Shown: piece by piece, positions 3,066 through 30,412 of the stretch | Position numbering within the stretch: position 1 is the first letter of the stretch | How the letters are laid out: each line of letters begins with the position of its first letter | NCBI GenBank assembly: GCA_964597575.1 | Contig: CAZQXB010000001.1 | Location: 704,595 to 768,594 of the forward strand | Length of the DNA: 64,000 bases | Reading direction: 5' to 3' | DNA from: an uncultured Gammaproteobacteria bacterium | Lineage (GTDB): Bacteria > Patescibacteriota > Patescibacteriia > Magasanikbacterales > UBA922 | Notes under the pieces: model-generated | Told to the model about the DNA's origin: nothing | Seen by the model: only the letters and a program-made list of their open reading frames with translations | Database searches by the model: none | Position numbers and translations under genes: made by a program

Positions 3066-3422
3066 TTACGCCTGAGCGCGTGATTTATTGCAGTTGAAGC
3101 AGTAAACTGGACGTGCGCCGCTTGGTTGGAATGGCAATTTATCGATATGCGTTCCACATTGAGCACAGTTCAAGTCTACGTCAAACATCTGGCGTTCCTG
3201 ACGAGGTGCGCTAGCTGCACGCTTATTGCGCAAACAATCGCGGCAGTAGACTGGCTTGTCGCCACTTGGCTGAAATGGAAGCTCACTGATGTGAGCGTTG
3301 CAGTCAGCGCAGTTAAGATCTACCTGCACCATTGGTCTGTCGTTTTGAAATGACATAAAACATTGGGATATGTACGAATTAATCGACCTTTCCCCGTACG
3401 ATGACTCTATACCCCCTATCAT
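3066..3422 (-). CDS. small protein with two tandem C4 zinc-ribbon repeats
   Basis: The motif CxxC-x16-18-CxxC occurs twice with the conserved core LPFQPSG-RPVYCxxC (NCADCNAHISELPFQPSGDKPVYCRDC and NCAQCGTHIDKLPFQPSGARPVYCFNC). Confidence 0.6.
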   Translation of the reverse strand: MIGGIESSYGERSINSYISQCFMSFQNDRPMVQVDLNCADCNAHISELPFQPSGDKPVYCRDCLRNKRAASAPRQERQMFDVDLNCAQCGTHIDKLPFQPSGARPVYCFNCNKSRAQA

Positions 3423-3574
3423 CTAAAAACGACGATGGTTGATACGTTTTTCACCTCACGGATAACGATAGGTACTATAGCATAAATTCCCAGTTTTGTC
3501 AACCTATTTATCTCATATATGTCAACAGCTTCCCCTCCTCACTAAAACAGACCTGTGATTTCTCTCAAAACTAA

Positions 3575-3612
3575 ACACCCCCACAAGTATGGAGGGGTGT
3601 TTGTTTTTTCTG
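3575..3612. terminator. intrinsic terminator hairpin downstream of the pilin gene
   Basis: Perfect 7-bp stem ACACCCC/GGGGTGT with a 12-nt loop, followed by TTGTTTTTTCTG on the plus strand and TTAGTTTTGAG on the minus strand. It lies immediately 3' of the minus-strand pilin stop at 3624. Confidence 0.4.
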
Positions 3613-3623
3613 CTAGCAGAAAA

Positions 3624-4076
3624 CTATGGAGTTGACGATGCTGTTAAACCTGATGGAGTAGCAACGATCGTACCTGACAAACCACTCACTTCACCTTCGA
3701 GTTCACTGGTGATGCTGTATGCTGAACCGTCAGCTGACAAATATTCGTATGTAGTGTTGTTTCCTGGATCTTCAGGAACTAACCCCATATACGCATCGGT
3801 ACAGCCTGCTGCGCCGAAACCAGACTGGTTCAAACACGCGTACTGTGCAGTACCGAGGTCGATAGCAACTGTTGAAGTTGGATAACTATTGTTATCCGTG
3901 TAAAACAATTCGAGTGCGGTTTGGATTTGCTTAATGTCGGACAAACGGCGGGCATCACGCGATTTCTCACGTGCTGAGCCAAGTGCCACTACGGCAAGCG
4001 TTGACAAAAGGCCGATAATCGCGATAACGACCAAAAGCTCAATAAGCGTAAAACCTTTTCTATTCATGATGTTCAC
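3624..4076 (-). CDS. type IV pilin / pseudopilin (prepilin-type N-terminal cleavage and methylation domain)
   Basis: N-terminus MNRKGFTLIELLVVIAIIGLLSTLAV is the class-III signal (G|FTLIELL, Glu at +5) followed by a hydrophobic helix. Size is 150 aa with an SD of AAGGGGGTG. Confidence 0.85.
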   Translation of the reverse strand: MNIMNRKGFTLIELLVVIAIIGLLSTLAVVALGSAREKSRDARRLSDIKQIQTALELFYTDNNSYPTSTVAIDLGTAQYACLNQSGFGAAGCTDAYMGLVPEDPGNNTTYEYLSADGSAYSITSELEGEVSGLSGTIVATPSGLTASSTP

Positions 4077-4086
4077 CCCCTTTCCT

Positions 4087-4106
4087 GTTCGTGGAACATG
4101 TGTTCA
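4087..4106. promoter_or_regulatory. inverted-repeat operator-like element in the pilin promoter region
   Basis: TGTTC-gtg-GAACA-tg-TGTTC lies within 30 bp upstream of the pilin start codon, between the pilin gene and the receiver gene. Confidence 0.3.
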
Positions 4107-4124
4107 TACACGATTGAATACATC

Positions 4125-4511
4125 TTAAGCGATGTTCAGTGCTTTCTTTACCTTACCAACCGTTTCGGATGGTTTAAAATGTGCCTTAATCAGATAATCC
4201 ACGGCTCCGAGCTCCAACCCTTTTTCTACGTCGTCTTTTTGCCCTAAGTTGGTAAGAAGGATCACCGGAATCGCACCAGTCTCACTGTCATTTTTCAAAT
4301 GCTTCAACACGGTGAAGCCATCCATTTTCGGCAAAAGAACATCAAGTAAAATAATATCCGGTTTTTTCTTTTTTGCATCATCGAGCCCCGCTTCCCCATT
4401 TTCTGCCACACTGACTCGAAAACCTTCCATCTCAAATTTGGTTTTGTAAATATTTGCGAGAAACGTATCATCTTCCACAAGAAGAACGTGCTTGTTAGTA
4501 GTGTCGGCCAT
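4125..4511 (-). CDS. stand-alone response-regulator receiver (CheY-like) protein
   Basis: LLVEDD...DIILLDVLLPKMDG...ILLTN...K contains the acidic pocket, the phospho-acceptor Asp and the conserved Thr/Lys. There is no output domain (128 aa). Confidence 0.8.
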   Translation of the reverse strand: MADTTNKHVLLVEDDTFLANIYKTKFEMEGFRVSVAENGEAGLDDAKKKKPDIILLDVLLPKMDGFTVLKHLKNDSETGAIPVILLTNLGQKDDVEKGLELGAVDYLIKAHFKPSETVGKVKKALNIA

Positions 4512-4535
4512 AAGAAAAAACGAGTAGTGGTTCCA

Positions 4536-5663
4536 TTATACAATGTTTCGAAGAGCAAGTCCAATCGCAACCGACATACGAGGCCCAACGGAATCAAGAA
4601 CTGGTTTTAATCCTTGCTGATACACAACACGCGCCCACGGATCTCCTACAAATACTTTGAGTGGAAATGCAGCCGCGAGCTCTAACTGAATGGCAGGTAC
4701 GAGCGCGGAACCGCCAGTCAAAATAATTTTTTCCGGTCGCTTTTCTTCGTTCCCGGTTTGACGCAAATACATATCGAAACCGTATTGCACTTCTTTAATC
4801 ATGGGTTCAATGATATGCGGAAACAATACTTCGGAAATCACCTCACTTGAAACATGTTCTAAATCATATTTCATTTCCCCAGCAGCCACAATATTAACCC
4901 CCAAGCGCTCTGCGATCATTTCATCAATCATGGCTCCTCCAATTTGGATGCTCCGGTGCGTCACGGGAAGCCCCTGATCCATAATAAAGAAATTGGTACG
5001 CTCCGCGCCCATATCAATAACGAGAACGGTTGACGTATCGCGACCAACAAGTGCCCGCTCAAGCGCAAACGCTTCAGTTTCGAGTTCTGCCAAACGAAGA
5101 CCAGCACGTTCAAAAATACTCGTATAAAAAACAATCAATTCTTTCGGTGCAGCTGTAACCAGCACACGCATATTCTTGCGCTGCTTTTCCATATCGGTTT
5201 GCGGAATAATCTGATGCACCACTTGCATTTCACTCGCTGGGCGTGGCAAAAGCTTCCCAATTTTTGCTTCTACATGCTGAACAATTTCTTTTTCCTTAAG
5301 TTCTGGAAGCGTAATAATCGTATGAAAAACATACGACACCGGTAAACTTGCTACGGCTTGGCGCGTAGTCACCTTTGCTTGCTTTACCACTTCTTGCAAA
5401 AGCTTCGCGTAATGATCAACTCGTGCATCTGTCGTTTCTAACCCTGATACCGGAGGAAGTGATGTGGTGGTAACTGGCGCACCCCGCAGCTGTTCAGGAG
5501 TTTTATCTTGTAAATTGGTAACATGAATATCGAGCGGCTCATCAATCATGCCATACGTCCAAAGTTGCGGGCGATTTTTATTTTTTCGAAGCTCAACAAT
5601 TTTAATACCATGCGCTCCGATATCCACCCCCACGAATGATTCTGTTTTTTGAAACATGGCCAT
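4536..5663 (-). CDS. pilM: type IV pilus assembly ATPase-fold protein PilM
   Basis: Actin/Hsp70-like fold motifs: VGVDIGAHGIKIV, DMGAERTNFFI, ILTGGSALVPAI. Length (375 aa) and position next to a pilin gene fit PilM. Confidence 0.8.
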   Translation of the reverse strand: MAMFQKTESFVGVDIGAHGIKIVELRKNKNRPQLWTYGMIDEPLDIHVTNLQDKTPEQLRGAPVTTTSLPPVSGLETTDARVDHYAKLLQEVVKQAKVTTRQAVASLPVSYVFHTIITLPELKEKEIVQHVEAKIGKLLPRPASEMQVVHQIIPQTDMEKQRKNMRVLVTAAPKELIVFYTSIFERAGLRLAELETEAFALERALVGRDTSTVLVIDMGAERTNFFIMDQGLPVTHRSIQIGGAMIDEMIAERLGVNIVAAGEMKYDLEHVSSEVISEVLFPHIIEPMIKEVQYGFDMYLRQTGNEEKRPEKIILTGGSALVPAIQLELAAAFPLKVFVGDPWARVVYQQGLKPVLDSVGPRMSVAIGLALRNIV

Positions 5664-5799
5664 ACAGAAAATTTCAGTTGAAAAAAGTATACCATATTAT
5701 TATAGTATGCAAAAGGTTATCGTGTGCTCAAAAACAACAACCGAGTGATAACTTGCCAAGCACCTCATTTTCTCGTACGATACGAATACTCTTTTTTCT

Positions 5800-7260
5800 A
5801 TGCTCTCCTTATATAATACGCTTTCAAGAACTGCCGAACCGTTTACCCCCCTTAAGGGAAATGATGTGGGTTTGTATACGTGTGGCCCAACCGTGTATCA
5901 CTACGCTCATTTAGGCAACCTCCGAACATATATTTTTGAAGATGTTTTGAAACGCACCTTGGTTGCTAATGGCTACACAGTAAACCATGTCATGAATATT
6001 ACTGACGTCGGTCATCTTACCGACGACGCTGATCAAGGGGAAGATAAAATGGAAAAAGGCTCACGACGAGAAGGAAAAACGGCCTGGGAAGTGGCCGACT
6101 TTTACACTGCCGCATTTTTAAAAGATATTGATGCTCTGAACATCATTCATCCGAATATTTTGTGTAAAGCGACAGACCATATCCCCGAACAAATTGCGCA
6201 AGTTCAAACTCTTATTGATAAAGGCCATACCTACGAAACAGCAGATGGTATTTATTTTGACACCACGAGCATTTCTGATTACGGAAAATTAGCTCAACTC
6301 GAAAAACAGCAACTTGAAGCGGGTGCGCGAGTCGACATGGGTGAAAAAAAGAACCCACACGATTTTGCGCTTTGGAAATTTACCGCGCCAGGTGAAAAGC
6401 GCCAAATGGAATGGGCGGCTTTTGGTCGTATGGGTTTTCCAGGCTGGCATATTGAATGTTCTGCCATGAGTATTAAATACTTAGGAGAACAGTTTGATAT
6501 TCACTGTGGTGGTATTGATCACATTCCCGTCCACCATACGAACGAAATTGCTCAGGCTGAAAGCGCAACCGGAAAAAAACCGTGGGTAAACTACTGGCTC
6601 CACGGAGAGTTCATTTTAACGAACAGTGAAAAAATGGCAAAGTCGGGCGGCAATCTTTTAACGCTCCAGTCTATTATCGACGAAGGTATTGATCCGCTCG
6701 CCTACCGATACTTTGTTCTTCAAACCCATTACAGAAAACAAGCCAATTATACCCTTGAGGCGCTCAAGGCCGCGGCGGCTGGCTACGAACGACTGGTGAA
6801 AGACATCGGACAACTCTATCACCGAAAGATGGAGAATGATTCCTTTGGAAACCGGGGGTATGCGGAAGGGAAAAAGGGGGCATCTTCTGACGAGTGGAAA
6901 AGAATGATGAAAAACCAAATCAATAACGACCTTTCAACACCGCAAATTCTTGGACTTTTGCGCGATCTCATTCGTGACGAAACATTATCGCCGGAAGAAC
7001 GAATGGATGTGATTGAGTATACCGACCAAATTCTTGGTCTTGACCTTTTGAAGAAAGCTGAGGCCTTTTCCCAAAAAAATCAGCATACAGAAAAAAATAT
7101 TGAGATCCCTCAAAAAGTAGAAAAACTTCTTCAGCAACGGGAAATCGCGCGAAAAGAAAAACACTTTGACGAAAGCGACCTCCTTCGTAAAGAAATTCAA
7201 ACTTTTGGCTTCGACGTTGAAGACACCCCTCAAGGACAGCGACTTATCCCACGCACCTAA
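5800..7260 (+). CDS. cysS: cysteinyl-tRNA synthetase
   Basis: Class I aaRS with CGPTVY..HLGN (HIGH-type) and KMAKSGGN (KMSKS) motifs, plus the CysRS Zn ligand region WHIECS. Confidence 0.9.
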
Positions 7261-7320
7261 AAAGAATCCTCGCCCAATTACGAAAATTCTGGTATACTCT
7301 CTCTATCATGTATTTTTCGT

Positions 7321-7860
7321 ATGCCAACTATCGGTAGCCCTCGCACACCAGATAAACTCCCGGAGGGGCTTCGTAAACTCGCTCCACGAGAAGTGGGTAT
7401 TCCGTCTGACCACGAAAACCCACCTCGTGTTGAACGAACAGAACAAGTTCGCGAAAAAGAAAAAACAGAAAACATCCAAAGTCCAAAAGAACAAAAGCCT
7501 GTCGAAGAAGGGCTTATTTCTCGTATTAGAAAACCAAAAGTTATTCCCCAGGTAAAACCCATCACCCGCGATGAAATTACTCGAGATGTGGAACATATTA
7601 TGTCTGAGGGCCTCACTGAGGCATTCAAGGCACTTTCTCCGATTAAGCAACAGGAATTTAAAATGAAAGGAGAAGAGACCGCTCGGGAAATTAGAAGCCT
7701 CCTTTTTTCAACAAAAGTGAAGATGAAAAAAATCTTTGAACTTATTTTTGACTGGCTGAAACTCCTTCCCGGGGTCAACAAATTCTTTCTGGAACAGGAA
7801 GCAAAAATTAAGGCTGAGCGTGTCATGCGCTTGAAAGAGCTCAAAAATTTTCGCCCTTAA
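7321..7860 (+). CDS. hypothetical Lys/Glu-rich protein, first gene of the ATPase operon
   Basis: 179 aa ORF ending 3 nt before the ATPase gene. It is a charged low-complexity protein with no recognised domain. Confidence 0.45.
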   Translation: MPTIGSPRTPDKLPEGLRKLAPREVGIPSDHENPPRVERTEQVREKEKTENIQSPKEQKPVEEGLISRIRKPKVIPQVKPITRDEITRDVEHIMSEGLTEAFKALSPIKQQEFKMKGEETAREIRSLLFSTKVKMKKIFELIFDWLKLLPGVNKFFLEQEAKIKAERVMRLKELKNFRP

Positions 7861-7863
7861 TGT

Positions 7864-10431
7864 ATGCCGCCAGAATTCCTCGGCGACGCACAACCCTATT
7901 TCAATACCAGCGCATCCGTTGATACCACACTCGTTGCGCTTCTTTTGTTTGGAGCCATTGCCGGTGTTGCCACATTTGTTTTTATCCTCCGGGGAATACT
8001 TCATGTAAAATTTCGCAAAGAAAGTAGTTTTACCCGAGTCGTTCTTCGCATTACGGTTCCAAAAGAGCGTCGCAGTGAGGGCCAAGGAAACCAAAGCCAA
8101 CAAGAAGATCGACTAGAACAAGTGCGTGAAGAAATTGGACTTACAGAAACATTCTTTGGCACGATTGCAGGGCTAAAAGCAGAACGCGGTATGGCTCCGT
8201 GGTTTCGTGGACGAAGTGATCATTTAGCCTGTGAAATGGTCGTTCACGACGGCCTCATTACCTTCTACATTGAAGTTCCCAAACGTTTTCGCACCATGAT
8301 TGAGCAGCAGATTCAGGCCCAGTACCCGCATGCCGAAATAGAACAAATGATTGACTACAACAATTTTAGCCCGAAAAGCAGTATTGTGGGCGCCTATATC
8401 GCAAGCGATGGTCCACGCGTTTCCCCGATTAAAACATATCGTAAAATTGAATCGGACCCCCTCTCATCACTTCTAAACGTCCTTGCGAAAGTGCGGGAAC
8501 CTGGAACAAGTTTGGCTGTGCAATATGTTATTCGATCGGCCAAAAAATCGTGGCGCCGTGAAGGGGTTGGCCTTATTGAAAACCTCAGAAAAGGGAAAGG
8601 ATCAAGCGGTTTGGCTGGAAACGTAGGTTCAGGCGTGGCCGGATTTGGCAGCGCCATTGTACAAAACGTAGCAGGCTCCAAAAATGATAAAAACAAATCT
8701 TCGAAAGATGAAAAGAAACACGAACTTACCCAAGCCGAACAAGAACTTATTAAAAACATCCAAGAAAAGCTTGGGAAAGGCGGGCTTGATGTGACGGTTC
8801 GCCTGCTCTCAGTAGCCGATTCTCCAGAAATTGCAAAAACAAACCTCGACAACCTTGTCTCTTCATTTAGCCAGTACAATCTCTACCAGTACGGAAATAG
8901 CTTAAAAGCAGTTATTCCCCGAAATCAAACACAACTAATTCGTGATTTTATTTATCGCACCTTTCACGAGAAGCGAGCCTTTGTCGTCAATACTGAAGAA
9001 ATGGCCGGCCTCTGGCATCTTCCTCTTCACTCAACCGAAACTCCGAACATTCGCTGGCTTGGTGCACGCAAAGCCCCTCCCCCATCCAATGTACCAACCG
9101 AAGGAATTCTTCTTGGACATGTGAACTACCGGGGAACTGACACGCCAATTCACATGAAAGATGCCGATCGTCGGCGCCATATGTATGTAATTGGGAAATC
9201 CGGCTCTGGAAAATCAGTCCTCCTCGCGAATTTAGCTATTCAAGATATTAAAAATGGACACGGCATTTGTATTATCGACCCTCACGGAGATCTAGTAGAG
9301 GATGTTTTGCAACATGTGCCAAAAGAACGGGCTGAGGATGTGATTATATTGAATCCTTCCGATGTTGAGAGGCCCATTGGGCTAAACATGCTCGAGGCGA
9401 AGACGGAAGATCAGAAAGATTTTGCCGTGGGAGAAATGATCGCCATCTTCTACAAGCTCTTTCCACCGGAAATGATTGGGCCAATGTTTGAGCACAACAT
9501 GAGAAATGTGATGCTCACCCTCATGGCGGACATCGATAACCCAGGCACGATTATCGACATCCCTCGCATGTTTACGGATGATGCTTATGTCAAAAAATAC
9601 TTGGTGAAATTGAAAGATCCTGTTGTGCGAGCCTTCTGGGAAAAAGAAATGGCCAAAACGAGTGATTTCCACAAATCTGAAATGCTTGGCTACCTTATTT
9701 CTAAAGTGGGCCGCTTCGTGGAAAACGAAATGATGCGAAACATCATGGGTCAGCAAAAGAGCGGCTTCAATTTTCGCGAAGCCATGGATAAGAAAAAAAT
9801 TCTTCTCGTCAATTTGGCGAAAGGAACTACCGGAGAAATGAACGCTAAACTCATTGGGCTTATTGTGGTAGCAAAACTTCAGATGGCAGCCATGAGCCGG
9901 GCTGATCTTCCTCAAGAAGAGAGAACTGACTTCTACCTGTATATCGACGAGTTTCAAAACTTTGTAACGGATTCGATTTCGACCATTCTCTCCGAAGCCC
10001 GCAAATACCGCCTTAATCTTATTATTGCCCATCAATATATGGGGCAGCTTATTGACGAAAAGGGCCGCGATGATATTCGGAAAGCCGTGCTTGGAAATGC
10101 GGGTACCATGGCCGCGTTCCGTGTAGGCCCTGAGGATGTAGAAATTCTTTCAAAAGAATTTGCACCAACGTTTGGCGGCTACGACCTCTTAAACGCACCA
10201 CAATTTTCTTGTTATACAAAATTGCTCATTGACAATACCGCAAGTAAGCCATTCAATATGCTTACCTATCCGTACAACCAGGGAAATAAAAAACTGGCAG
10301 AAGCGATTCGTCAGCTTTCTCGACTTACCTACGGTCGCGATCGCCGCATTGTCGAAGAAGAAATTCTTGAGCGAACCCAAATTGGGGCGGCTGAAACAAA
10401 AGCGAAAACAAGTGTTGAGTCAAGTTTATAA
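7864..10431 (+). CDS. membrane-anchored HerA/FtsK/VirD4-superfamily P-loop ATPase with a novel ~420 aa N-terminal domain
   Basis: N-terminal TM helix (LVALLLFGAIAGVATFVFIL). Walker A YVIGKSGSGKS is followed by IIDPHGDLVED (the HerA/DUF87-type DPHGE/D motif). Walker B FYLYIDEFQNF, then IIAHQY. Residues 30-420 are homologous to ORF 18913-20349 (AQYPHAEIEQMIDY vs AQYPEAEITEIEDY; EEMAGLWHLPLH..APPPSNVPTEG vs EELATIWHFPMS..EPPSDLPVEG). Confidence 0.75.
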   Translation: MPPEFLGDAQPYFNTSASVDTTLVALLLFGAIAGVATFVFILRGILHVKFRKESSFTRVVLRITVPKERRSEGQGNQSQQEDRLEQVREEIGLTETFFGTIAGLKAERGMAPWFRGRSDHLACEMVVHDGLITFYIEVPKRFRTMIEQQIQAQYPHAEIEQMIDYNNFSPKSSIVGAYIASDGPRVSPIKTYRKIESDPLSSLLNVLAKVREPGTSLAVQYVIRSAKKSWRREGVGLIENLRKGKGSSGLAGNVGSGVAGFGSAIVQNVAGSKNDKNKSSKDEKKHELTQAEQELIKNIQEKLGKGGLDVTVRLLSVADSPEIAKTNLDNLVSSFSQYNLYQYGNSLKAVIPRNQTQLIRDFIYRTFHEKRAFVVNTEEMAGLWHLPLHSTETPNIRWLGARKAPPPSNVPTEGILLGHVNYRGTDTPIHMKDADRRRHMYVIGKSGSGKSVLLANLAIQDIKNGHGICIIDPHGDLVEDVLQHVPKERAEDVIILNPSDVERPIGLNMLEAKTEDQKDFAVGEMIAIFYKLFPPEMIGPMFEHNMRNVMLTLMADIDNPGTIIDIPRMFTDDAYVKKYLVKLKDPVVRAFWEKEMAKTSDFHKSEMLGYLISKVGRFVENEMMRNIMGQQKSGFNFREAMDKKKILLVNLAKGTTGEMNAKLIGLIVVAKLQMAAMSRADLPQEERTDFYLYIDEFQNFVTDSISTILSEARKYRLNLIIAHQYMGQLIDEKGRDDIRKAVLGNAGTMAAFRVGPEDVEILSKEFAPTFGGYDLLNAPQFSCYTKLLIDNTASKPFNMLTYPYNQGNKKLAEAIRQLSRLTYGRDRRIVEEEILERTQIGAAETKAKTSVESSL

Positions 10432-10455
10432 TAATAACACCATTTTAATACACAT

Positions 10456-11082
10456 ATGAATGACCTTTCTTTTGCACACACCTCATTTGATCCTGCGGCC
10501 GAACCAGTTCCTCCGACCCCTGTTTCTCCAAGCGATAACGCCCCACTGCCCCAGACTTCACCAACAGCACCCCCAGACCTTGCCATTGTCCGCCAGATGA
10601 TTCACCGCATGAAAGACGAACTCGACGCTATGCTTCGCGTACTTCAGGGTGACTCGAGCGGATCAAAAGACTTTCGCCCTCATTTTGAAACAATTACTGC
10701 CGGATCTAACATTCAGATACAGGAAGGTGTCTTTACCGGCAACATGATGCGGGCCACCGACGGCAAAGAATACAGCATCCCCCCAAACTATGCGAGCAAA
10801 TCGAAACTGGTAGAGGGCGACCGCATGAAACTCACTATTACTCCGAGCGGTGCGTTTATTTACAAACAAATTGCTCAGATAGAACGCGATCGTGTTACAG
10901 GCGAACTGACCCTTGACCCAGGCACTGGTCAATGGCATGTGGTCGTGAATGGAAAGCCATACAAAGTATTAACCGCTTCGGTAACCTTTTATCGCGGAAA
11001 ACCAGGAGATAAAGTTTCTATTTTAGTCCCAAAAGGAGTTGAGGCTTCTTGGGGCGCAATGGAGAATGTCATTCAGGGATAG
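10456..11082 (+). CDS. hypothetical protein with Pro-rich N-terminus, last gene of the ATPase operon
   Basis: 208 aa ORF with a 25-nt gap after the ATPase gene, followed by a strong terminator. Confidence 0.45.
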   Translation: MNDLSFAHTSFDPAAEPVPPTPVSPSDNAPLPQTSPTAPPDLAIVRQMIHRMKDELDAMLRVLQGDSSGSKDFRPHFETITAGSNIQIQEGVFTGNMMRATDGKEYSIPPNYASKSKLVEGDRMKLTITPSGAFIYKQIAQIERDRVTGELTLDPGTGQWHVVVNGKPYKVLTASVTFYRGKPGDKVSILVPKGVEASWGAMENVIQG

Positions 11083-11103
11083 CATTCAATATACCTCAAA
11101 AAC

Positions 11104-11138
11104 AAAAATACCCCGGGCCTTGGGGTATTTTTGTTTTC
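11104..11138. terminator. bidirectional intrinsic terminator
   Basis: Perfect 11-bp stem AAAAATACCCC/GGGGTATTTTT with loop GGGCCTT. The A-tract and T-tract on either side serve the convergent genes 10456-11082 (+) and 11161-11433 (-). Confidence 0.6.
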
Positions 11139-11160
11139 TATCCGACTCTTGCCTTACTGT

Positions 11161-11433
11161 TTATTTTTTATCTGGGTCGGTCACATGAGTTGAAATAAGT
11201 TTTGCCATTTCAAACATGTTCACCTGTGATTTTCCTCCGAAAAGCACTTTGAGCTTTTCGTCAGCGTTAATATTACGCTTATTCTTCATATCTTGCAAAC
11301 CTTTTGCCTTGATGTATTCCCAAACCTTTTTCATTACCTGACCGCGAGACATTGGACCTGGTCCTGCAACTGCCTGTAACACTGGTGACAGGTTGAGTGG
11401 CTTAAGAAGTGCTGGGTTGGCTTTCCGTGGCAT
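11161..11433 (-). CDS. SWIB/MDM2-domain protein
   Basis: LKPLNLSPVLQAVAG...SRGQVMKKVWEYIKAKGLQDMKNKRNINADEKLKVLFG...VNMFEMAKLISTHV matches the bacterial SWIB consensus. Confidence 0.75.
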   Translation of the reverse strand: MPRKANPALLKPLNLSPVLQAVAGPGPMSRGQVMKKVWEYIKAKGLQDMKNKRNINADEKLKVLFGGKSQVNMFEMAKLISTHVTDPDKK

Positions 11434-11646
11434 ACACGATATTTAGAAAATTAAATACTACGTTGTAGTTATGCCCACACTATAACACAGGGGTCATGCG
11501 AAGGGCAATAGGTTATACACAGGGAGGAGGAGTGGTGCCAAGAAACATAAAAAACAACGAATACTTTTTCTCAAAGAAAAAAAGAAAACATCTTCCCCAT
11601 CATGAGAAAGTACTATATACTACGTTTCACTAACACGAACGAATAT

Positions 11647-13266
11647 ATGGCACTCTACCACAAGTACCGCCCTCAAACTTTTGCTGATGTTACTGGCCAA
11701 GAACACATAGTTCGAACAATCTCGAATCAAATTCGCACCAATACGCTCGGTCATGCGTATCTTTTCTCTGGACCTCGCGGGGTTGGTAAAACAACCACTG
11801 CCCGCCTCATTGCCAAAGCCGTCAATTGTGAAAAACGGTCCAAAGATATTTTCGAACCCTGCAATACCTGCACATCGTGCATCGAAATTACCGCTGGACA
11901 TGCTTTAGACGTTGTTGAAATTGATGCGGCGAGCCACACCGGTGTTGACCATGTGCGCGAACACATTATCGATAACGCTCGTTTCCGCCCTACAAAATCT
12001 CCGTTTAAAATATTTATTATCGACGAGGTCCACATGCTTTCCACCTCGGCGTTTAATGCGCTTCTAAAAACCCTAGAGGAACCGCCGGCGCATGTTGTAT
12101 TTATTTTAGCGACGACCGAACTTCAAAAAATTCCCGAAACCATTCTTTCCCGATGCCAACGATTTCAGTTCAAAAAAATGCCCTTTGACGACATGCGAAA
12201 GCATTTGCTCGATATCGCCAAGGCAGAAGATATTACAATTGACGATGAGCCGCTTCATCGCATTATTGCCAAAAGTGATGGTTCAGTACGCGATGCCATG
12301 AGCTTGCTCGACCAGCTCATCTCTTTGGGTGAAAAAAAGATTACTGAAGCGAACGCTGCTGCTATTCTCCCTCTCCATAATCTTGATACTGCGTTTCGCT
12401 TTATTGAAAAAACACTTCAAAGAAACCCGGTTGAAGCACTTCGCATACTTGATGCCGCAAGTGAAGCCGGAACATCATGGATTGATTTAGCCGACGACTG
12501 TGTCGTTATTGCGCGTCTCATGTGTATTGGCCGCGTTGGAGGGGATACAAGCCAAGTTGCCCTTCCTATTCCCAAATCCGTGGAAACATCTGCAGGGGCA
12601 CTGGGAAAAAATCTCTCCTCAAGCGAATTGATTCGTTTTATGGACATGCTCCTTTCGCGCCGGGCCGAAATTGCAAAAAGCCCTATCCCAGAACTTCCTT
12701 TTGAAATGCTCACTATTGCCTGGAGTGCCGAAGAAGAAAAAGGGCCACCTCTACCAACCACCAGCTCGATAAACGTTGCTTCGAAAAAAGTGGAACCGGA
12801 AAAAAAAGAGATTCCAGTTGTTTCAAAAAAAGTACTCGCCTCTGAAATGCCGTCACCACCCACTCCCCCTCCTGTTTCTCCTGTTCAACCAGTTGAAGAA
12901 ATAAAAAACAGTACCCCAGAAGAAACCGCGGCCCTTCCCCCACTTGATTTTGGAACGGTGCAGCTAAAATGGAAGCAATTGGTAAAGTCTCTTGAAACAC
13001 GCTCACCTTCATTGGTTTCTGTGCTTCACATGGCTCGCGTGGAAGGGGTCGAGGGAAGAACCATTACCCTTTCTGTCCCTTTTGCTTTTCACAAAGACAC
13101 GCTGGAGAGCAAAAACGGAAGACCGGCACTTGCTGCAGCCCTTCTTGAGCACTTTAATGGCCGGGCAGATCTTTCTATTCTTATCAAAGAAGAAAAAACA
13201 GACACCGCAGACCCAGATCTCGCGCATCTTGCTGCAGCATTTGGTGGAGAATTTGTATCCCCATAG
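11647..13266 (+). CDS. dnaX: DNA polymerase III subunit gamma/tau
   Basis: YRPQTFADVTGQEH, Walker A GPRGVGKTT, zinc module CxxCxxC (CNTCTSC), Walker B IFIIDEVHML, and sensor SRCQRF. The start was set at MALYHKYRPQTF. Confidence 0.9.
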   Translation: MALYHKYRPQTFADVTGQEHIVRTISNQIRTNTLGHAYLFSGPRGVGKTTTARLIAKAVNCEKRSKDIFEPCNTCTSCIEITAGHALDVVEIDAASHTGVDHVREHIIDNARFRPTKSPFKIFIIDEVHMLSTSAFNALLKTLEEPPAHVVFILATTELQKIPETILSRCQRFQFKKMPFDDMRKHLLDIAKAEDITIDDEPLHRIIAKSDGSVRDAMSLLDQLISLGEKKITEANAAAILPLHNLDTAFRFIEKTLQRNPVEALRILDAASEAGTSWIDLADDCVVIARLMCIGRVGGDTSQVALPIPKSVETSAGALGKNLSSSELIRFMDMLLSRRAEIAKSPIPELPFEMLTIAWSAEEEKGPPLPTTSSINVASKKVEPEKKEIPVVSKKVLASEMPSPPTPPPVSPVQPVEEIKNSTPEETAALPPLDFGTVQLKWKQLVKSLETRSPSLVSVLHMARVEGVEGRTITLSVPFAFHKDTLESKNGRPALAAALLEHFNGRADLSILIKEEKTDTADPDLAHLAAAFGGEFVSP

Positions 13267-13270
13267 CTCT

Positions 13271-14257
13271 ATGCGTTTATTCGCTCTTCCCCTTTTTGGC
13301 CTTTTGCTTCTCCCCTTTCCGGTTTTTGCACTCTCACCCACAGGCCCGACCACCCTAGCGGTTCCTTATGTAAGCCAGGCCCCCTATGGCGTATGGGTTG
13401 AGCCGTGGCAAAATGCGTGCGAAGAAACGACCATTGCTATGGTTGATGCATTTTATGGAAAGCGCACTCTTACTCGCGCAACAGGAACAACCGCTATCCG
13501 GCTGGCGCTTAAACTCCGTGAACACCGCCATGGAAAAAGTTTGGATGAATCTGCCGAAGTCATGAAAGATATCATTAACTCGTATTATCCATGGGAAGCT
13601 TCTGTTGTACGAAACCCAACGCTTGAGCAAATCATGGAGGAAATAAAAAATGGCCGACCAGTGATTGCGCTCACCCACGGGAAAGCACTCGGGAATCCCC
13701 GATTTCAACAAGGCGGGCCAGACTATCATACTATTGTTCTCTCTGGGTTTAACGAACCCACCAAAGAATTTATTACCCAAGAACCTGGTACATCGATTGG
13801 GCAAAATCATCGCTATTCGTTTACGACCGTCATGAATGCACTCCACGATTTTGTTCCAAATAAGAAAACTTCGACCGGCGTGCCGACGGTTTTATTCACC
13901 TCACCTCGAATAGAGGCAAGCGGAACAAGTGATGCAGACGGTGACGGACTCTCCAAACAAGATGAACTTCGGCACGGAACCGTGCTCTATTTTTCAGACA
14001 GTGATGGGGACGGGTACACTGACGGCGAAGAGGTTGTGCTCGGTTTTTTACCCAATAAAAATGAACAGGCCCTTCCGTACGGAACGCTTGTAAAAAGTAC
14101 TGATGCCCCCGCAGTATACCGTTTGGAAAATGGAAAAAAACGCCATATCGTGAGTGAGCAGGCATTTTTAGGACGCGGATGGAAATGGACACAAATCGTT
14201 CTTGTGAGCAGTAGATTTCTCGAGAACGTTCCAGTCGGCACTCCTATCACCCGGTAA
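13271..14257 (+). CDS. secreted peptidase-C39-like (C39_2 family) protein with C-terminal thrombospondin-type-3 repeats
   Basis: Signal peptide MRLFALPLFGLLLLPFPVFA. VPYVSQAPYG...NACEETTIAMVDAFYGK resembles the Peptidase_C39_2 Cys motif. The C-terminus has DADGDGLSKQDE and DSDGDGYTDGEE Ca-binding TSP3 repeats. The track ORF start at 12992 overlaps dnaX, so the ATG at 13271 was used. Confidence 0.65.
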   Translation: MRLFALPLFGLLLLPFPVFALSPTGPTTLAVPYVSQAPYGVWVEPWQNACEETTIAMVDAFYGKRTLTRATGTTAIRLALKLREHRHGKSLDESAEVMKDIINSYYPWEASVVRNPTLEQIMEEIKNGRPVIALTHGKALGNPRFQQGGPDYHTIVLSGFNEPTKEFITQEPGTSIGQNHRYSFTTVMNALHDFVPNKKTSTGVPTVLFTSPRIEASGTSDADGDGLSKQDELRHGTVLYFSDSDGDGYTDGEEVVLGFLPNKNEQALPYGTLVKSTDAPAVYRLENGKKRHIVSEQAFLGRGWKWTQIVLVSSRFLENVPVGTPITR

Positions 14258-14289
14258 ATAGGCCGTGTTACCATCTCGTTCAGAAAAAT

Positions 14290-14325
14290 AAAAAGCGATC
14301 CATTGCTGGGTCGCTTTTTACTAAT
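14290..14325 (+). terminator. intrinsic terminator after the C39-like peptidase gene
   Basis: 12-bp stem AAAAAGCGATCC/GGGTCGCTTTTT (one G-U wobble) with loop ATTGCT, followed by TTTTTACT. Confidence 0.55.
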
Positions 14326-14570
14326 CAATAAAGATCAAAGAGAGCACCTACGCCTGCTCTTCACCTGGTTTCTTTTCATCTGGTGTTGGGGCAGGGGCCG
14401 GTGCATTGTTCATGATCATAGTCCGAGTGGTTATGAATGCATGCCAACTAGTGGTAGGTGACATACATTCATCATACTCCTCAAGCAAACCCTGTCAACT
14501 ACCCACATTGACAAAGAGCGAAAAAAATGATACTTCTACATCACGTTGAAATTCAACGAGGAAGTATACG

Positions 14571-15125
14571 ATGAACGACAAAGAGGCACAAATCGAGACC
14601 ACGCTTTTCCTTGTGAGGGCGCTCCCCATGCATGGAGGAGTCCAAACGGAGGCTTACATACAGACCCGTGACAGCGCGGCTGCAGAGCGAGTGAGCGAAT
14701 ATATTGCCCACAAGCTAGGCATGGTGTCATCCACGACCGTCGGGGCTATCTACAGCTCCCAGACCCCGGGTGCGACTCTCACGGCTCTCCGCATCAAGAA
14801 GGGTCTTCTCAGCTACCGCAAGGTGAGCAGCTTCCTCCGCGTCGAGACCGTGATCCGCCAGGAAAACAGCACGGCGGACTCGAGCTCCGCGCATGGCTAC
14901 GCGATCCGGATCACCGAGCTCGTCCGGGAGAACCTCGGACAGCACATCGTCGTGGTCCTGGCCTGCGACGCGGATACTTTCGCGCAGACGGTGCGGAAGT
15001 TCTCGGGGGGTGGGGGTTCGATCCCGGAGTTGGTGCCTGGCACCGTCGTTACGCTCACGCTCCACGGAGCTGGACCTGAGTGGACGAAGACGGTCATGGA
15101 CTGCCACAGCCCCGCCAAGAGCTAG
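14571..15125 (+). CDS. hypothetical protein encoded in high-GC island 1
   Basis: 184 aa ORF with a good SD (GAGGAAG, 8 nt upstream). Local GC is about 60% against a 45% background, with GC3-biased codons. No recognised domain. Confidence 0.5.
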   Translation: MNDKEAQIETTLFLVRALPMHGGVQTEAYIQTRDSAAAERVSEYIAHKLGMVSSTTVGAIYSSQTPGATLTALRIKKGLLSYRKVSSFLRVETVIRQENSTADSSSAHGYAIRITELVRENLGQHIVVVLACDADTFAQTVRKFSGGGGSIPELVPGTVVTLTLHGAGPEWTKTVMDCHSPAKS

Positions 15126-15292
15126 CCCCTCTGACCACCCCTCCCTTCTCTTCCGGCGTCCCATCGCAGCAGACCACACGGCTCACCACCGAACGGCCTG
15201 CTGCGATCTTTTCTTTAGAGAGAAAAACTATTTCTGAACGAAGAATATACCTTGACGAACGACACCAAATTGCGTATACTCATGGCACATAA

Positions 15293-15363
15293 TCGGGGAT
15301 CGTCTAACGGTAGGACTTCAGGTTCTGGTCCTGAATATCGGGGTTCGAATCCCTGTCCCCGAA
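15293..15363 (+). tRNA. tRNA-Gln (anticodon CTG)
   Basis: Hand-folded cloverleaf. Acceptor TCGGGGA/TCCCCGA with U1-A72, a Gln identity element. D stem GTCT/GGAC. Anticodon stem TCAGG/CCTGA with loop TTCTGGT (anticodon CTG). T arm CGGGG-TTCGAAT-CCCTG. Discriminator A, no encoded CCA. Confidence 0.8.
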
Positions 15364-15370
15364 CAAAAAA

Positions 15371-15403
15371 ATATACCACCCACATGGGTGGTATATTTTT
15401 TTG
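15371..15403 (+). terminator. intrinsic terminator after tRNA-Gln
   Basis: Perfect 11-bp stem ATATACCACCC/GGGTGGTATAT with loop ACAT, followed by TTTTTTT. Confidence 0.6.
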
Positions 15404-15521
15404 ATTTGTTGGATTAGGAATTCGAACGGGGAGGGTTTGGGAACCGGGAGGTTCCCACTTTTGTTGGGGGAAGGTTGGGAAGGGGTGGAAACCCTTTCCC
15501 AGGAGGAGCTTTAGCGACAAC

Positions 15522-15537
15522 TTCGAATTCCCTGTCC
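15522..15537 (+). repeat. direct repeat copying the 3' end of tRNA-Gln (att-like footprint)
   Basis: TTCGAATTCCCTGTCC here versus TTCGAATCCCTGTCC at 15344-15358 (T-loop to acceptor 3' strand). A related inverted fragment GGAATTCGAAC is at 15417-15427. A G-rich, non-coding-looking segment lies between the copies. Confidence 0.5.
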
Positions 15538-15658
15538 AAAAAGAGAAGGCGGAAGCCAACGAGAGGCTAAGGAGAATCCCTGGATTGAAAAAAGCCTGCC
15601 CCGACGACGCTTGGTCGAAACAGACTTCTTCTCCTCAAAGGAAAAGAGTGGTGATGGA

Positions 15659-16114
15659 TCATTTCCTCTCTGACGGCGACTCTTCTCCATGATGACAGGA
15701 TGGTGCACCTCGAGAAATCCTTCGGATATGCTCAGCATGGCGACCTGGCCTATCTTGCACCCTCGAAATCGAAACCAAACCAACATCATCATCTGGGGCA
15801 CTGGTAAGATCGAATGGAAAGGTAATATGCGCACTTCCATCTCCACCACTAGGCCACTGACGCGGTATCATACCGAACGCACGAAAGACGGTTCCTCGAA
15901 CCCACACACAGGACGGGGTAGCAAAGGCATCGCCTTTTTTCCTGCCAGACCAGGCAATGAAGGCGAAAACATAGTGGATTGACTGATCGGCGGCAGCGAG
16001 CTTGAGCTCGAAGTTGGGAGCATCACGCCCAGGCTCTGGAATGGGGGCACCGGTGTGGCCCGCAAAAATCTCACGGGCACCGATGATACGGTAGGTATTT
16101 AGCGCCTGTACCAT
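15659..16114 (-). CDS. hypothetical protein encoded in high-GC island 1
   Basis: 151 aa ORF with about 58% GC. The N-terminal two thirds look like a globular beta-rich protein. The C-terminal about 40 aa are low complexity, so the true 3' end is uncertain. Confidence 0.35.
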   Translation of the reverse strand: MVQALNTYRIIGAREIFAGHTGAPIPEPGRDAPNFELKLAAADQSIHYVFAFIAWSGRKKGDAFATPSCVWVRGTVFRAFGMIPRQWPSGGDGSAHITFPFDLTSAPDDDVGLVSISRVQDRPGRHAEHIRRISRGAPSCHHGEESPSERK

Positions 16115-16216
16115 GGATCACGTCTCCTTCACCCGTATCATACTCATAACAAAAAAGATGCGTCAAATATTGCCTTTTCTTCCTTTTTCCGCTACCATTC
16201 TACTATTATCATTTCT

Positions 16217-26905: not shown

Positions 26906-27307
26906 CTAGCGCATGACTTCTGTTCTGAAGTGACCATGACACCGCCTGCCGTTCGTTCTAAGACCGAGGATATACTTCCCGGGCAGAATGGGCGGCAACT
27001 CAACCGCTGCCAAGTACTTCCGCCCCTCTGTGTCCGATACGTCGACCACTGTCTGCACTCCAAGAATGGCGAGGCGATGAAAGGTTCGACGCACTGGGCC
27101 TTGTGGAATGACGAACGAATCATGAACCACAAAGCAGATTGGGGCACTAACGACGAGCACAGGATGCCGTCGAGCCTGAGCTGGAACTGTAAACTCAATA
27201 CCTACGAAGCCGTCGCTCGCCTCAATATTCTGCATGAGTGCATATCGACGGACATAGATGCCTCCAACAAACAGACCGACCACGAGGAACACGTACATGG
27301 AAATCAC
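26906..27307 (-). CDS. hypothetical small membrane-anchored protein (high-GC island 2)
   Basis: 133 aa ORF with an N-terminal TM helix (YVFLVVGLFVGGIYV). GC is about 55%. Confidence 0.35.
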   Translation of the reverse strand: MISMYVFLVVGLFVGGIYVRRYALMQNIEASDGFVGIEFTVPAQARRHPVLVVSAPICFVVHDSFVIPQGPVRRTFHRLAILGVQTVVDVSDTEGRKYLAAVELPPILPGKYILGLRTNGRRCHGHFRTEVMR

Positions 27308-27323
27308 GGTGAACTTCCTTCCA

Positions 27324-27983
27324 TCACACCTTGAATGTGATGTTGATGCCGAACTCCGTGCGAAGCAACCTGCGCAGATCGTTCGCCGTCTTCTCGCGCG
27401 CGTCGAACTTGAGCGTCTTCATGCCACACGCTCTCGCCCCAACTAGGTTTTCATCTTTGTCATCGATGAAAAGAATTTTGCTCGGATCACAGTCGGCGCG
27501 TTCGATGGCCGTAAGATATATTTCTCGCTCTGGCTTCCGATGGCCAATTTCAAACGAGAGAATACGACGATCCCGGGGGATCAAACGCAGAAGCTGCGGG
27601 ATGCACTTCTTAGCCCACTCCCAGTGAGGGGCAGTGGTGTTGGAAATGATCCCAAGAAAAGGAACGGCTTTTGCCAAATCCCCGACTGCCGACTCAATAC
27701 CAATGACTGGAGTAAACACGTCCCCCCAGCACGCGATGATATCGGAGTTTGGAAAGTTCGGCGCACCGAGAATCCGCCGCACCTCGCAGGCAAACCGCGC
27801 TCCATCCATTCCCCGCTCGAATCCATCTTCGAGCTCGCCTCCGTAGAGGAGAGAAAAAACGGTTTTGGCAGAGTGTGGATCGTTAGTCTTCCTGGCAAAC
27901 TTCTCACACGCAATCATGTGATCGAAATAAACGAGCACACGACCCAAATCGAAATATACTGCCTCAATGTTAGAAATTTTCAT
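27324..27983 (-). CDS. HAD-superfamily hydrolase (subfamily IA-like)
   Basis: Motif I AVYFDLGRVLV near the N-terminus, motif II ISNTT, motif III K, and motif IV LFIDDKDENLVGARACGM. The start was set at MKISNIE. Confidence 0.6.
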   Translation of the reverse strand: MKISNIEAVYFDLGRVLVYFDHMIACEKFARKTNDPHSAKTVFSLLYGGELEDGFERGMDGARFACEVRRILGAPNFPNSDIIACWGDVFTPVIGIESAVGDLAKAVPFLGIISNTTAPHWEWAKKCIPQLLRLIPRDRRILSFEIGHRKPEREIYLTAIERADCDPSKILFIDDKDENLVGARACGMKTLKFDAREKTANDLRRLLRTEFGINITFKV

Positions 27984-28163
27984 GAACAATCCTCTCCTTG
28001 CCCAAGGTTGGGCGCCGCACCTGCCAAAAACGACAGATGACTTTTGAGAATACTTGAGTTGCACCAAAAAGTCAAGGCAAAACTTCTTCAATTATAAAGA
28101 GCGTAGAGGGTGATCTACGCTCGGGGAAGAACTCCCGGGAATGGAACGGTATCGGCGTGGGCG

Positions 28164-28763
28164 CTAGAGGGAGATGACCTCGGCGACGCTGCCGAAGGGT
28201 CCGATTCGGACGAACCGGATGTCCGCGACCTTCATGGTGTGGGGGTGGTCGGGGTACTCGCCCCTGAAACCACGCTCATCGTGGGCCAGGGTGAGGTGCG
28301 GGCGCCACTGCCCGCTGACCAGAGGATGTCCGTACTTTTGCACGTTTTCCTGCTGTTCAGGGGTCAACTCGAGCTTCTCCTCGGCCTGTCGCCCGGTCGA
28401 GATGGTCTGGTCACGAAAGTCCGCGATGGCGAGAGCCGCATGGTGCGCCCGGAAGAGGATCCTCGTCAACCTCTCGTTCCCCCTCCACATCACATCCCAG
28501 AAGAGGAACTTTTTCCCGAACTGAGCCAGTGGGCCGAGCGGGATCTCGGTGCCGGAGGCGAGCTCATGCCGACAGTCCTCGAGAATCTCGCGCGCCCGGG
28601 TAACGGACAGCCCTACCACGGACGTGTGGTACAGGGTCAGGTGGGGCAGAGGCGTCTGGAAGCGTGCCCGGTCCGCATATTGGGTGATGAGCCTCTCCAC
28701 CTCTGCCTGGGTGGCTGGGTCAGGGCGGACGACAAAGCCGTACGCTCCACTGTATGAGTTCAT
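28164..28763 (-). CDS. 2H phosphoesterase superfamily protein (LigT / 2'-5' RNA ligase-like)
   Basis: Two H-x-T-x motifs (PHLTLYH and PHLTLAH) spaced about 100 aa apart are the hallmark of the 2H family. About 63% GC with strong GC3 bias. Confidence 0.55.
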   Translation of the reverse strand: MNSYSGAYGFVVRPDPATQAEVERLITQYADRARFQTPLPHLTLYHTSVVGLSVTRAREILEDCRHELASGTEIPLGPLAQFGKKFLFWDVMWRGNERLTRILFRAHHAALAIADFRDQTISTGRQAEEKLELTPEQQENVQKYGHPLVSGQWRPHLTLAHDERGFRGEYPDHPHTMKVADIRFVRIGPFGSVAEVISL

Positions 28764-28890
28764 CTCGTGTCCTCTTTCTGCAAGCAGGATCGCTTGCGAT
28801 TTCTAATCTCTATATACCAAAAAAAAGCTTAAAAGTCAATAATTTAGCTCTCACCCTTCCACATATTCACAAGTCAAACCCTTCTTCCTC

Positions 28891-28919
28891 TTGACAAAAT
28901 ACTAATAAAATGATAAGAT
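28891..28919 (+). promoter_or_regulatory. sigma70-type promoter for gene 29002-29706
   Basis: TTGACA, a 17-nt spacer ending in TG (extended -10), then TAAGAT. The surrounding 140 bp is AT-rich inside a GC-rich island. SD GGGAGGG lies 10 nt before the ATG at 29002. Confidence 0.45.
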
Positions 28920-29001
28920 CGCCTGTCTGTGTACGTCTTTAACCTACATTAGGAAAAGATGCGATGCGCAGAAGGACAAGGCCCTAGGGAGGGCAACGAC
29001 A

Positions 29002-29706: not shown

Positions 29707-29942
29707 TCGCACCTGCCCGCAACCTCTTCCCGTTCTCTACTATCGAGAGCGACGTGAGGTCCCACCTACCGGGCATTCGCCCACCGTCCCTCCATCGACC
29801 ACGTCGGTGCGAGGGACTCTTTTTTTACAAAAAGTATCCACCGAGGTGGATTTTTTGATATTGACAAATACGCGAAAATGTGGTATATTACCTTGCTTCT
29901 GTGATTGAAGATAACCTATTTAACCGTCCTAGGAGGGACATC

Positions 29943-30407: not shown

Positions 30408-30412
30408 AAAAA

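Follow-up and report, generated by a model that had tools for sequence, protein, structure and literature searches.

Lineage-specific additions beside an apparently ancestral tRNA-Gln(CUG) gene, a probable site of recurrent DNA gain

Why is a lone tRNA gene accompanied by GC-rich DNA and followed by a near-copy of part of itself? The question is raised by tRNA-Gln(CUG) in a 64-kb stretch of contig CAZQXB010000001.1 (hereafter the window; position 1 is its first letter, and coordinates refer to it unless a relative's contig is named). A first-pass annotation had read the arrangement as a decayed tyrosine-integrase element framed by attL/attR scars or, alternatively, as a hotspot for foreign DNA. 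The tRNA, the 184- and 151-aa open reading frames (ORFs) on its two sides, the downstream copy and an inverted T-loop-like string are all present, and half of that inference is overturned by the synteny with relatives. The locus appears to be an ordinary variable hotspot around an ancestral tRNA with two independent lineage-specific additions: a cassette with an orphan gene upstream of the tRNA promoter and a G-rich palindromic piece downstream of the tRNA terminator. The hotspot part of the earlier proposal is borne out by these segments and by a prophage located at the same tRNA end in sister strains.

Gene order around the tRNA in the window and in related contigs

Contigs of relatives, designated by L numbers, were gathered in two ways, through the folD cluster P0003 and by scanning for the 47-nt 3' part of tRNA-Gln, and they sort into three lineages. 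The best folD relative, in this cluster, is 74% identical, and the second-best is 55% identical; a scan of genome contigs with the folD protein alone gave no match. In L006 and L011 the order is SWIB, dnaX, C39 peptidase, tRNA-Gln, a 103-aa minus-strand gene, folD and dus, and in L009 and L012 tRNA-Gln is followed by the orthologous terminator, a conserved minus-strand terminator, a minus-strand gene of 133–155 aa and folD. The comparison points to C39 peptidase, tRNA-Gln(CUG), small minus-strand gene and folD as the ancestral order. In the L009 lineage the upstream neighbor of the tRNA differs again from those of the window and the L006-type contigs. No outgroup with retained synteny was found among the gathered contigs, and the distant folD relatives L004 and L015–L018 lack this gene order.

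tRNA-Gln is the single tRNA of the whole window, on which ARAGORN and Rfam agree. Its nucleotides are identical, from the first base to the 3' strand of the acceptor stem, in L006, L007, L009 and L012. Because it is found unchanged at the same place in the relatives' contigs, the gene is ancestral at its present position and vertically inherited, and in the window its end is unoccupied, as at an empty site.

The additions are recognized by their absence elsewhere. An empty site had been sought in relatives by the earlier proposal, and both segments have one: the 989-bp upstream segment is missing from L006, L007 and L011, and the downstream piece of about 175 nt is absent from L006, L009, L011 and L012. 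The reading we favor, and regard as rather probable, is that of an old tRNA slot with recurrent DNA gain, in which the cassette and the palindromic piece were gained separately and the tRNA and the 151-aa gene descended vertically. The slot peptidase / tRNA-Gln / small minus-strand gene / folD would be a recurrent site of DNA gain in this small-genome bacterium, which probably belongs to the Patescibacteria (candidate phyla radiation, CPR). One acquisition would be a cassette of about 1 kb placed between the peptidase stop and the tRNA promoter; the other would be the G-rich palindrome, about 175 nt long, placed precisely in the gap that separates the tRNA terminator from the next gene's convergent one.

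For that next gene, the 151-aa ORF, three other lineages have a homologue at the corresponding place (four-lineage alignment A3). It matches the 103-aa ORF of L006 and L002 with 36% identity over 83 aa (E = 1e-14), can be aligned along its length with the L009 and L012 homologues, and has a C-terminal tail in common with L012; its terminator folds with z = −5.1 to −5.7 in the window, L009 and L012. These comparisons suggest a fast-evolving, clade-restricted family of small proteins that is vertically inherited. Since this neighbor is shared, in place, with three other lineages, the right-hand side is not an island, contrary to the earlier picture of islands on both flanks. Of the two sides, to both of which 58–60% GC had been ascribed, the left alone is clearly rich in GC: the 184-aa ORF reaches 61.8%, and the 151-aa ORF has 53.9% with local peaks of 58–59%; the mean of the window is 46.1%. 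As a side observation, folD of the relatives is over-called at 340 aa (L002 899–1921, L006 6842–7864), the true gene being about 283 aa long, and the over-extension covers and hides the conserved 103-aa minus-strand gene.

Table 1. Features of the tRNA-Gln locus and related segments (window coordinates unless a contig is named)
Feature	Position	Strand	Remarks
Lineage-specific segment, 989 bp	14258–15246	.	Between C39-like peptidase stop and tRNA promoter; GC 55%
Peptidase-gene hairpin terminator, TAAAAAGCGATCCA / TGGGTCGCTTTTTA	14289–14320	+	Inverted repeat I9; inside the 989-bp segment
Small ORF, 46 aa (38 aa from ATG at 14464)	14348–14488	-	No family match
184-aa orphan ORF	14571–15125	+	GAGGAAG ribosome-binding site 7 nt upstream
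Terminator of the 184-aa gene, 13-bp stem ATCGCAGCAGACC / GGCCTGCTGCGAT, then TCTTTTCTTT	15164–15216	+	Inverted repeat I19; predicted fold −23.6 kcal/mol, z = −5.1
tRNA-Gln promoter, TTGACG-17-TATACT	15252–15280	+	Conserved in L006, L007, L009, L012
tRNA-Gln(CUG)	15293–15364	+	ARAGORN; Rfam 58.4 bits
tRNA source string, TTCGAATCCCTGTCC	15344–15358	+	Inside tRNA-Gln
Native two-way tRNA terminator, perfect 19-nt arms	15364–15403	.	Inverted repeat I1; orthologous in L009, L012, L006 (alignment A2)
Lineage-specific insertion, ~171–180 nt	~15405–15585	.	Between two convergent, conserved terminators; GC 53%, G-rich on + strand
Palindromic three-way structure	15406–15542	.	Closing-stem arms 15406–15426 and 15522–15542 (I2); inner hairpins 15438–15457, 15471–15500
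Inverted T-loop-like string, GGAATTCGAAC	15417–15427	-	5' arm of palindrome
Canonical four-run G-quadruplex motif, GGGGAGGGTTTGGGAACCGGG	15428–15448	+	One of only two in 64 kb
T-arm/acceptor-like copy, TTCGAATTCCCTGTCC	15522–15537	+	3' arm of palindrome; one T longer than tRNA TTCGAATCCCTGTCC
Second short direct copy of tRNA T-loop/T-stem, GAATCCCTG	15574–15582	+	Right edge of insertion, 37 nt past the first copy
Terminator of the 151-aa gene, hairpin then U-run on - strand	15588–15625	-	Conserved in L009, L012
151-aa gene, divergent from folD	15659–16114	-	Promoter 16166–16137
199-aa ORF	28164–28763	-	GC3 82%; 2'-5' RNA ligase-like match
234-aa ORF	29002–29706	+	GC3 98%; weak DUF218 match
L007 element genes	L007 1286–6352		546-aa large serine recombinase, G2P-type Rep, ArdC-N protein, Zot-type ATPase, small hydrophobic proteins
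attB junction			...CCCTGTCCCCGA then ACGAAAAAAT
attL junction			...CCCTGTCCCCGA then GCAAAACAGA
attR junction			...GTTCGAAACTCGTCCCAGTATGGGA then ACGAAAAAAT

A prophage at the same tRNA end and the palindromic piece

In the sister strains L007 and L010, the tRNA is followed directly by DNA of 37% GC encoding an inovirus-like gene set. The element is regarded as an inovirus-like prophage because it combines recombinase, Rep, ArdC-N, Zot and small hydrophobic proteins. Its 546-aa recombinase has Resolvase, Recombinase and Zn-ribbon domains, and the last 20 codons of the recombinase ORF are the tRNA read in antisense. L002 and L010 share a metagenome. From the tRNA's last bases rightwards, L002 matches L006 with 98.8% identity, and on its left (1–560) it carries DNA of 35% GC; most simply, it would represent the other prophage end, although no overlap joins the two contigs. 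L011, from the metagenome of L002 and L010, is the empty allele, and occupied and empty alleles are thus present in one metagenome.

The attB, attL and attR junctions have only a GA core in common, and for this reason the exchange is ascribed to serine recombinase crossover. In the sister strains, a large serine recombinase would integrate the inovirus-like prophage at the acceptor stem's closing GA. The motif TTCGAA lies 17–12 nt from GA in attB and 22–17 nt from GA in the P arm; the phage arm thus carries a T-arm-like block (GTTCGAA...GTCCC) 5 bp farther from GA than in the tRNA. A 5-bp shift between attP and attB half-sites has been described for serine integrases (Rutherford et al. 2013, PMC3783163), and inoviruses with serine recombinases, tRNA att sites and CPR hosts have already been recorded (Roux et al. 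2019, PMC6813254). Judged by these junctions, the last base pairs of tRNA-Gln appear to be the attB of the inovirus-like prophage in sister strains, where the hotspot seems to be active. No relatives of the L007 serine recombinase were found in viral contigs. Two side observations concern this element: its integration turns the discriminator base of the tRNA from A to G, and the metagenome-assembled genome that holds L007 is labelled Gammaproteobacteria, probably by a binning error.

The downstream piece of the window has a sharply defined position. The BLAST alignment of L012 with the window runs to 15407 and resumes at 15588, L009 and L006 are likewise devoid of the piece (alignment A2), and in L006 and L011 only about 70 bp lie between the tRNA terminator and the 103-aa gene. 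The insertion is flanked by direct repeats, either GATT (15403–15406 and 15583–15586) or TGGATT (15410–15415 and 15581–15586). The two arms of the palindrome are imperfect inverted repeats, 21 nt long and 81% complementary, that close a stem of about 16 base pairs; from the right arm to the boundary of the insertion there are about 45 nt. The predicted fold has −62.2 kcal/mol (z = −4.4) on the plus strand and −49 kcal/mol (z = −5.0) on the minus strand.

The copy in the right arm had been described as the last 16 nt of the tRNA, which proved inaccurate. The copied string runs from the T-loop through the 3' half of the T-stem into the acceptor stem, of which it takes in 3 nt, and ends 5 nt short of the discriminator base; the copy begins 158 nt past that base. 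Local alignment of the tRNA with the 600 nt downstream of it scores 12.5, a value equalled by 3 of 1000 shuffles, and the second exact 9-nt copy, GAATCCCTG, adds slight support for the likeness. The resemblance between copy and tRNA has only modest significance, which it owes to their closeness. On the evidence of its extent and position, the palindrome is not a displaced tRNA 3' end. A decayed second tRNA was considered and rejected, as no 5' half of a T-stem precedes the copy.

We hypothesize that the palindrome arms imitate the T-loop and acceptor side of the tRNA, and that the palindrome is what remains of a site-specific mobile element, or a miniature version of one, with arms that resemble recombinase half-sites for the tRNA-Gln end. 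Weakly, such a relic or miniature of a tRNA-Gln-targeting element would be the likeliest single mechanism for the palindrome. In its arms, the distances from TTCGAA to neighboring GA dinucleotides are 17–22 and 16–21 nt. In the right arm, the 12 nt preceding this motif agree with the flank of the relatives' P arm at 9 of 12 positions, the first rank among the 46 TTCGAA sites of the window. The T-arm-mimicking arms, the GA dinucleotide and spacing of the sister attP and this right-arm flank are compatible with the half-site reading. A more specific version is improbable: the palindrome of about 130 nt would be a non-autonomous mini-element made from the P and P' half-sites of a tRNA-Gln-specific serine integrase, or the collapsed prophage ends at a pseudo-attB. 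If true, it would be the serine-integrase counterpart of a miniature inverted-repeat transposable element (MITE); in the second case, the lost inovirus-like prophage would have landed between the terminators.

Several results tell against an origin of the palindrome in such an element. The anchored flank test is weak, its runner-up reaching 8/12, and the comparison of the palindrome with the relatives' reconstructed attP is not significant, 52 of 500 shuffles being as good. The same tRNA scan over the rest of the window gives scores of 12–13 at four other places. No second copy of the palindromic piece exists in the window or the related loci, and tblastn found no homologues of the recombinase, Rep or Zot in the window.

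The main rival for the palindrome is coincidence, in which the 175-nt piece is an ordinary palindromic insertion (MITE-like or of the repetitive extragenic palindrome (REP) type, extra hairpins between convergent genes, or a structured RNA) unrelated to the tRNA; we consider this possible, though doubtful. Equal or higher tRNA scores do occur by chance at three or four places in 64 kb, one of them a 19/23 ungapped match at 55516–55538 within a coding ORF of 297 aa. TTCGAA is itself palindromic and easily becomes part of an inverted repeat; the short GATT or TGGATT repeats, the strong folds on both strands, as with DNA palindromes, and the non-significant likeness to attP fit this explanation as well. 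It accounts less readily for the local p-value of about 0.003–0.01 and for the second 9-nt copy of the same tRNA segment inside the same 175 nt. Coincidence would also have to accommodate a neighboring tRNA that is attB in sister strains, where the phage-side arm is likewise a T-arm mimic, and a piece that is single-copy in the window and related loci, unlike an abundant MITE, and belongs to no Rfam family.

A G-quadruplex or small RNA had also been suggested for the G-rich stretch. The motif and a stable fold do exist, whereas an Rfam family does not and the piece is missing from relatives. GGGGAGGGTTTGGGAACCGGG is a predicted motif with four runs of at least three G and loops of 1–7 nt; a strong hairpin (15438–15457) overlaps and competes with it, and the stretch around the palindrome has the densest plus-strand G-runs of the window. 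Neither at the gathering threshold nor with E raised to 10 did Rfam give a credible match for the piece; only the tRNA was found. A structured RNA is thus represented by no curated family and by no relative, although the fold is stable on both strands. Three exact-pattern scans of viral contigs for pieces of the palindrome found no match.

The upstream cassette and the 184-aa orphan gene

On the left of the tRNA, homology of L006 and L007 to the window (BLAST and inspection) ends at the peptidase stop and restarts at AATA(TA)CCTTGACG. The empty site is seen in L006 and L011, where about 8 bp separate the stop codon of the peptidase gene from the −35 box of the tRNA promoter. The inserted segment is dominated by the 184-aa ORF, whose GC fractions at the first, second and third codon positions are 0.59/0.48/0.79, compared with third-position GC (GC3) of 0.35–0.48 in neighboring genes. 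The amino-acid composition of this frame is ordinary (Kullback–Leibler divergence of 0.08 bits from the window's long ORFs), and the antisense 150-aa frame contains 17% Arg and diverges by 0.42 bits. By these measures the 184-aa frame appears to be the real coding frame, and the gene is probably expressed.

Automatic gene calls on both Logan contigs that cover this gene report an Arg-rich antisense ORF of 145 aa (14727–15164, minus strand) in place of the 184-aa sense ORF. That choice accounts for the absence of the 184-aa protein from the protein collections searched, an annotation gap in which callers trained on an AT-leaning host picked the wrong strand of a GC-rich gene. No homologue was detected in a word search of 5.8 billion protein clusters or in a full HMMER scan of 1.84 billion representatives, and Pfam, PHROGs, NCBIfam, PADLOC and PDB gave zero matches. 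By tblastn there was no match in plasmids, phages, all fetched loci or the remainder of the window, and blastn of 14258–15650 against phages and plasmids returned matches to tRNA-Gln genes only.

The 184-aa ORF combines a deviant composition, a coding signature and absence from relatives, as a horizontally acquired gene does, and is probably a recent foreign orphan gene. This gene would be the core of the cassette: its GC at the three codon positions suggests a donor of about 60–65% GC, and the AT-rich signals around it (−35 box, ribosome-binding site, terminator of its own) are host-like. The cassette may have entered by illegitimate recombination, since no integrase, long terminal repeats or long target duplication was found. 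Since no donor lineage or homologue of the protein was found in the collections searched, the transfer is deduced and not traced; this counts against the favored reading, as do an uninformative single-sequence AlphaFold model (predicted local distance difference test, pLDDT, of 36) and the fact that base composition is the sole basis for the polarity, gain or loss, of the 1-kb difference.

The 184-aa gene and its flanks might alternatively be ancestral and have been deleted in the L006/L007/L011 clade. Just one other clade has the peptidase directly beside the tRNA, no outgroup retains the synteny and the upstream neighbor in L009 is a different one, all of which leaves room for a loss. The GC3 of 79%, against 35–48% in the neighbors, is difficult to reconcile with long residence: the clades have diverged by about 30% in nucleotides, and a gene resident before their split should have drifted to host composition. 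Given also that no trace of the gene exists in relatives or the protein databases searched, deletion is unlikely, and gain of the cassette is the reading retained here.

Other features of the segment were recorded. The small minus-strand ORF has the promoter TTGACA-16-TATGAT, with 11/12 consensus positions, at 14498–14471. Its 38-aa form starts at an ATG 6 nt from this near-perfect promoter, has a Pro/Ala-rich tail and is divergent from the 184-aa gene; its mRNA may be leaderless, to judge from that spacing. A perfect 11-nt inverted repeat, TCGTTCAGAAA / TTTCTGAACGA (14276–14286 / 15231–15241), was considered as a pair of transposon ends and set aside, as chance alone gives roughly one such pair in 2.5 kb; its copies lie 19 nt and 5 nt inside the respective ends of the 989-bp segment. 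Within the 184-aa ORF, about 270 nt upstream of the tRNA, a T-arm-like string GGGGTTCGATCCC (15013–15026) matches GGGGTTCGAATCCC of the tRNA with one gap; the score is equalled by 27 of 1000 shuffles, and the likeness is probably due to chance. A processing stem between the C-rich stretch 15135–15154 and the G-rich stretch 15469–15488 was also rejected, the complementarity being just 75% and the tRNA's own promoter lying between them.

The ORFs scanned between 10.4 and 17.5 kb are the C39 peptidase, those of 184, 151, 128 and 208 aa, which have no family match, and folD, with dnaX and dus assigned from the contig gene tables; no integrase is among them. This bears on the decayed tyrosine-integrase island of the first-pass annotation, with the tRNA and the copy as attL/attR and the GC-rich ORFs as cargo. 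The T-loop is a known crossover sublocation of tyrosine integrases, and the repeat starts exactly there; its local score and its distance past the discriminator base fit such an island, and the locus varies among relatives. The native terminator of the tRNA, which has orthologues in L009 and L012, stands between the tRNA and the copy, and for this reason the copy is not a classical attR. The interval between tRNA and copy holds only this terminator and a 120-nt hairpin; of the two supposed cargo genes, the 184-aa one lies upstream of the tRNA promoter and outside the repeats, and the 151-aa one is ancestral. The tRNA's last 5 nt are missing from the copy, and no native downstream sequence follows it. 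The only integrase seen at tRNA-Gln in relatives is the large serine recombinase, whose 2-nt crossover leaves no long direct repeat. Alignment A2 thus largely refutes the island, which we consider very unlikely, and the locus offers a cautionary case: a short tRNA-like repeat beside a tRNA is not by itself an att scar.

The foreign base composition, together with a break in Logan contigs that leaves 21 nt without independent support, could suggest a chimeric join with another organism of the metagenome, an artefact that is hardly credible when two run-level assemblies cover peptidase, 184-aa ORF, tRNA and terminator unbroken at 100% identity (3271–15457 and 6438–15457, from independent runs) and promoter, ribosome-binding site and terminator suit the ORF. 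As to the break itself, the Logan contigs of the two runs both stop at 15457, and a third, beginning at 15479, spans the window to 24307. The 21 nt between them, CTTTTGTTGGGGGAAGGTTGG, sit between the two inner hairpins of the palindromic structure; the cause could be coverage dropout in G-rich sequence or population polymorphism.

Wider GC-rich gene uptake and comparison with known systems

A second and stronger GC-rich block, for which no plasmid homologue was found, lies at 27300–30450. It includes, besides the 234- and 199-aa ORFs listed in Table 1, a HAD hydrolase and a 175-aa ORF, and seems to have been acquired recently as well, from a donor very rich in GC. As other ORFs of the window reach GC3 of 82–98%, uptake of GC-rich genes seems to be recurrent in the source genome. 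The relatives have a GC-rich ORF of their own (56–59% GC), of 186 aa and with a lipoprotein-like N-terminus (L002 3672–4232, equivalent to L006 9615–10175), which lies between dus and a DUF8128 gene and is absent from the window. Identity of the 184-aa ORF with this 186-aa ORF was considered and rejected, the two being unrelated; because the relatives carry their own, lineage-specific insertions of GC-rich orphans appear to recur in the clade. For a very small genome (913,817 bp), probably that of an episymbiont, repeated uptake from GC-rich donors bears on the source of new genes in such bacteria, which may be their hosts. A patescibacterial epibiont treated in the literature (PMC13059738), with 27–28% GC, is a different organism.

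Among known systems, tRNA-associated islets and hotspots are similar in that foreign, lineage-specific DNA lies beside a tRNA, an empty site can be found and each lineage has different insertions. The window departs from them in that its foreign gene is upstream of the tRNA promoter and not past the 3' end, there is no integrase or full-length att repeat, and the cargo is a single orphan gene. With tyrosine-integrase islands of the P4, high-pathogenicity island (HPI) or integrative and conjugative element (ICE) type the locus shares a partial direct repeat of the tRNA 3' half downstream; the repeat is short of the tRNA end, however, the native terminator lies inside, and no integrase or cargo is found between the repeats.

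MITEs, REP sequences and bacterial interspersed mosaic elements (BIMEs), and Correia-like elements resemble the palindromic piece in their length of about 130–180 nt, imperfect inverted arms, flanking repeats, intergenic position between convergent terminators and strong predicted hairpin. In contrast to them, the palindrome is single-copy in the window and related loci, about 45 nt extend beyond its right arm, and its arms resemble the neighboring tRNA. Large serine recombinase systems of the phiC31, Bxb1 and A118 type differ from the window, which has neither recombinase nor prophage and whose palindrome merely resembles half-sites without significant similarity. Their likeness is to the sister strains, in which L007, L010 and L002 show the recombinase domains, the 2-nt GA core and the 5-bp-shifted phage arm. 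For a new large serine integrase targeting the tRNA-Gln end, these contigs would yield clean natural versions of attB, attL and attR, and integrase/att pairs of this kind are of practical interest for genome engineering.

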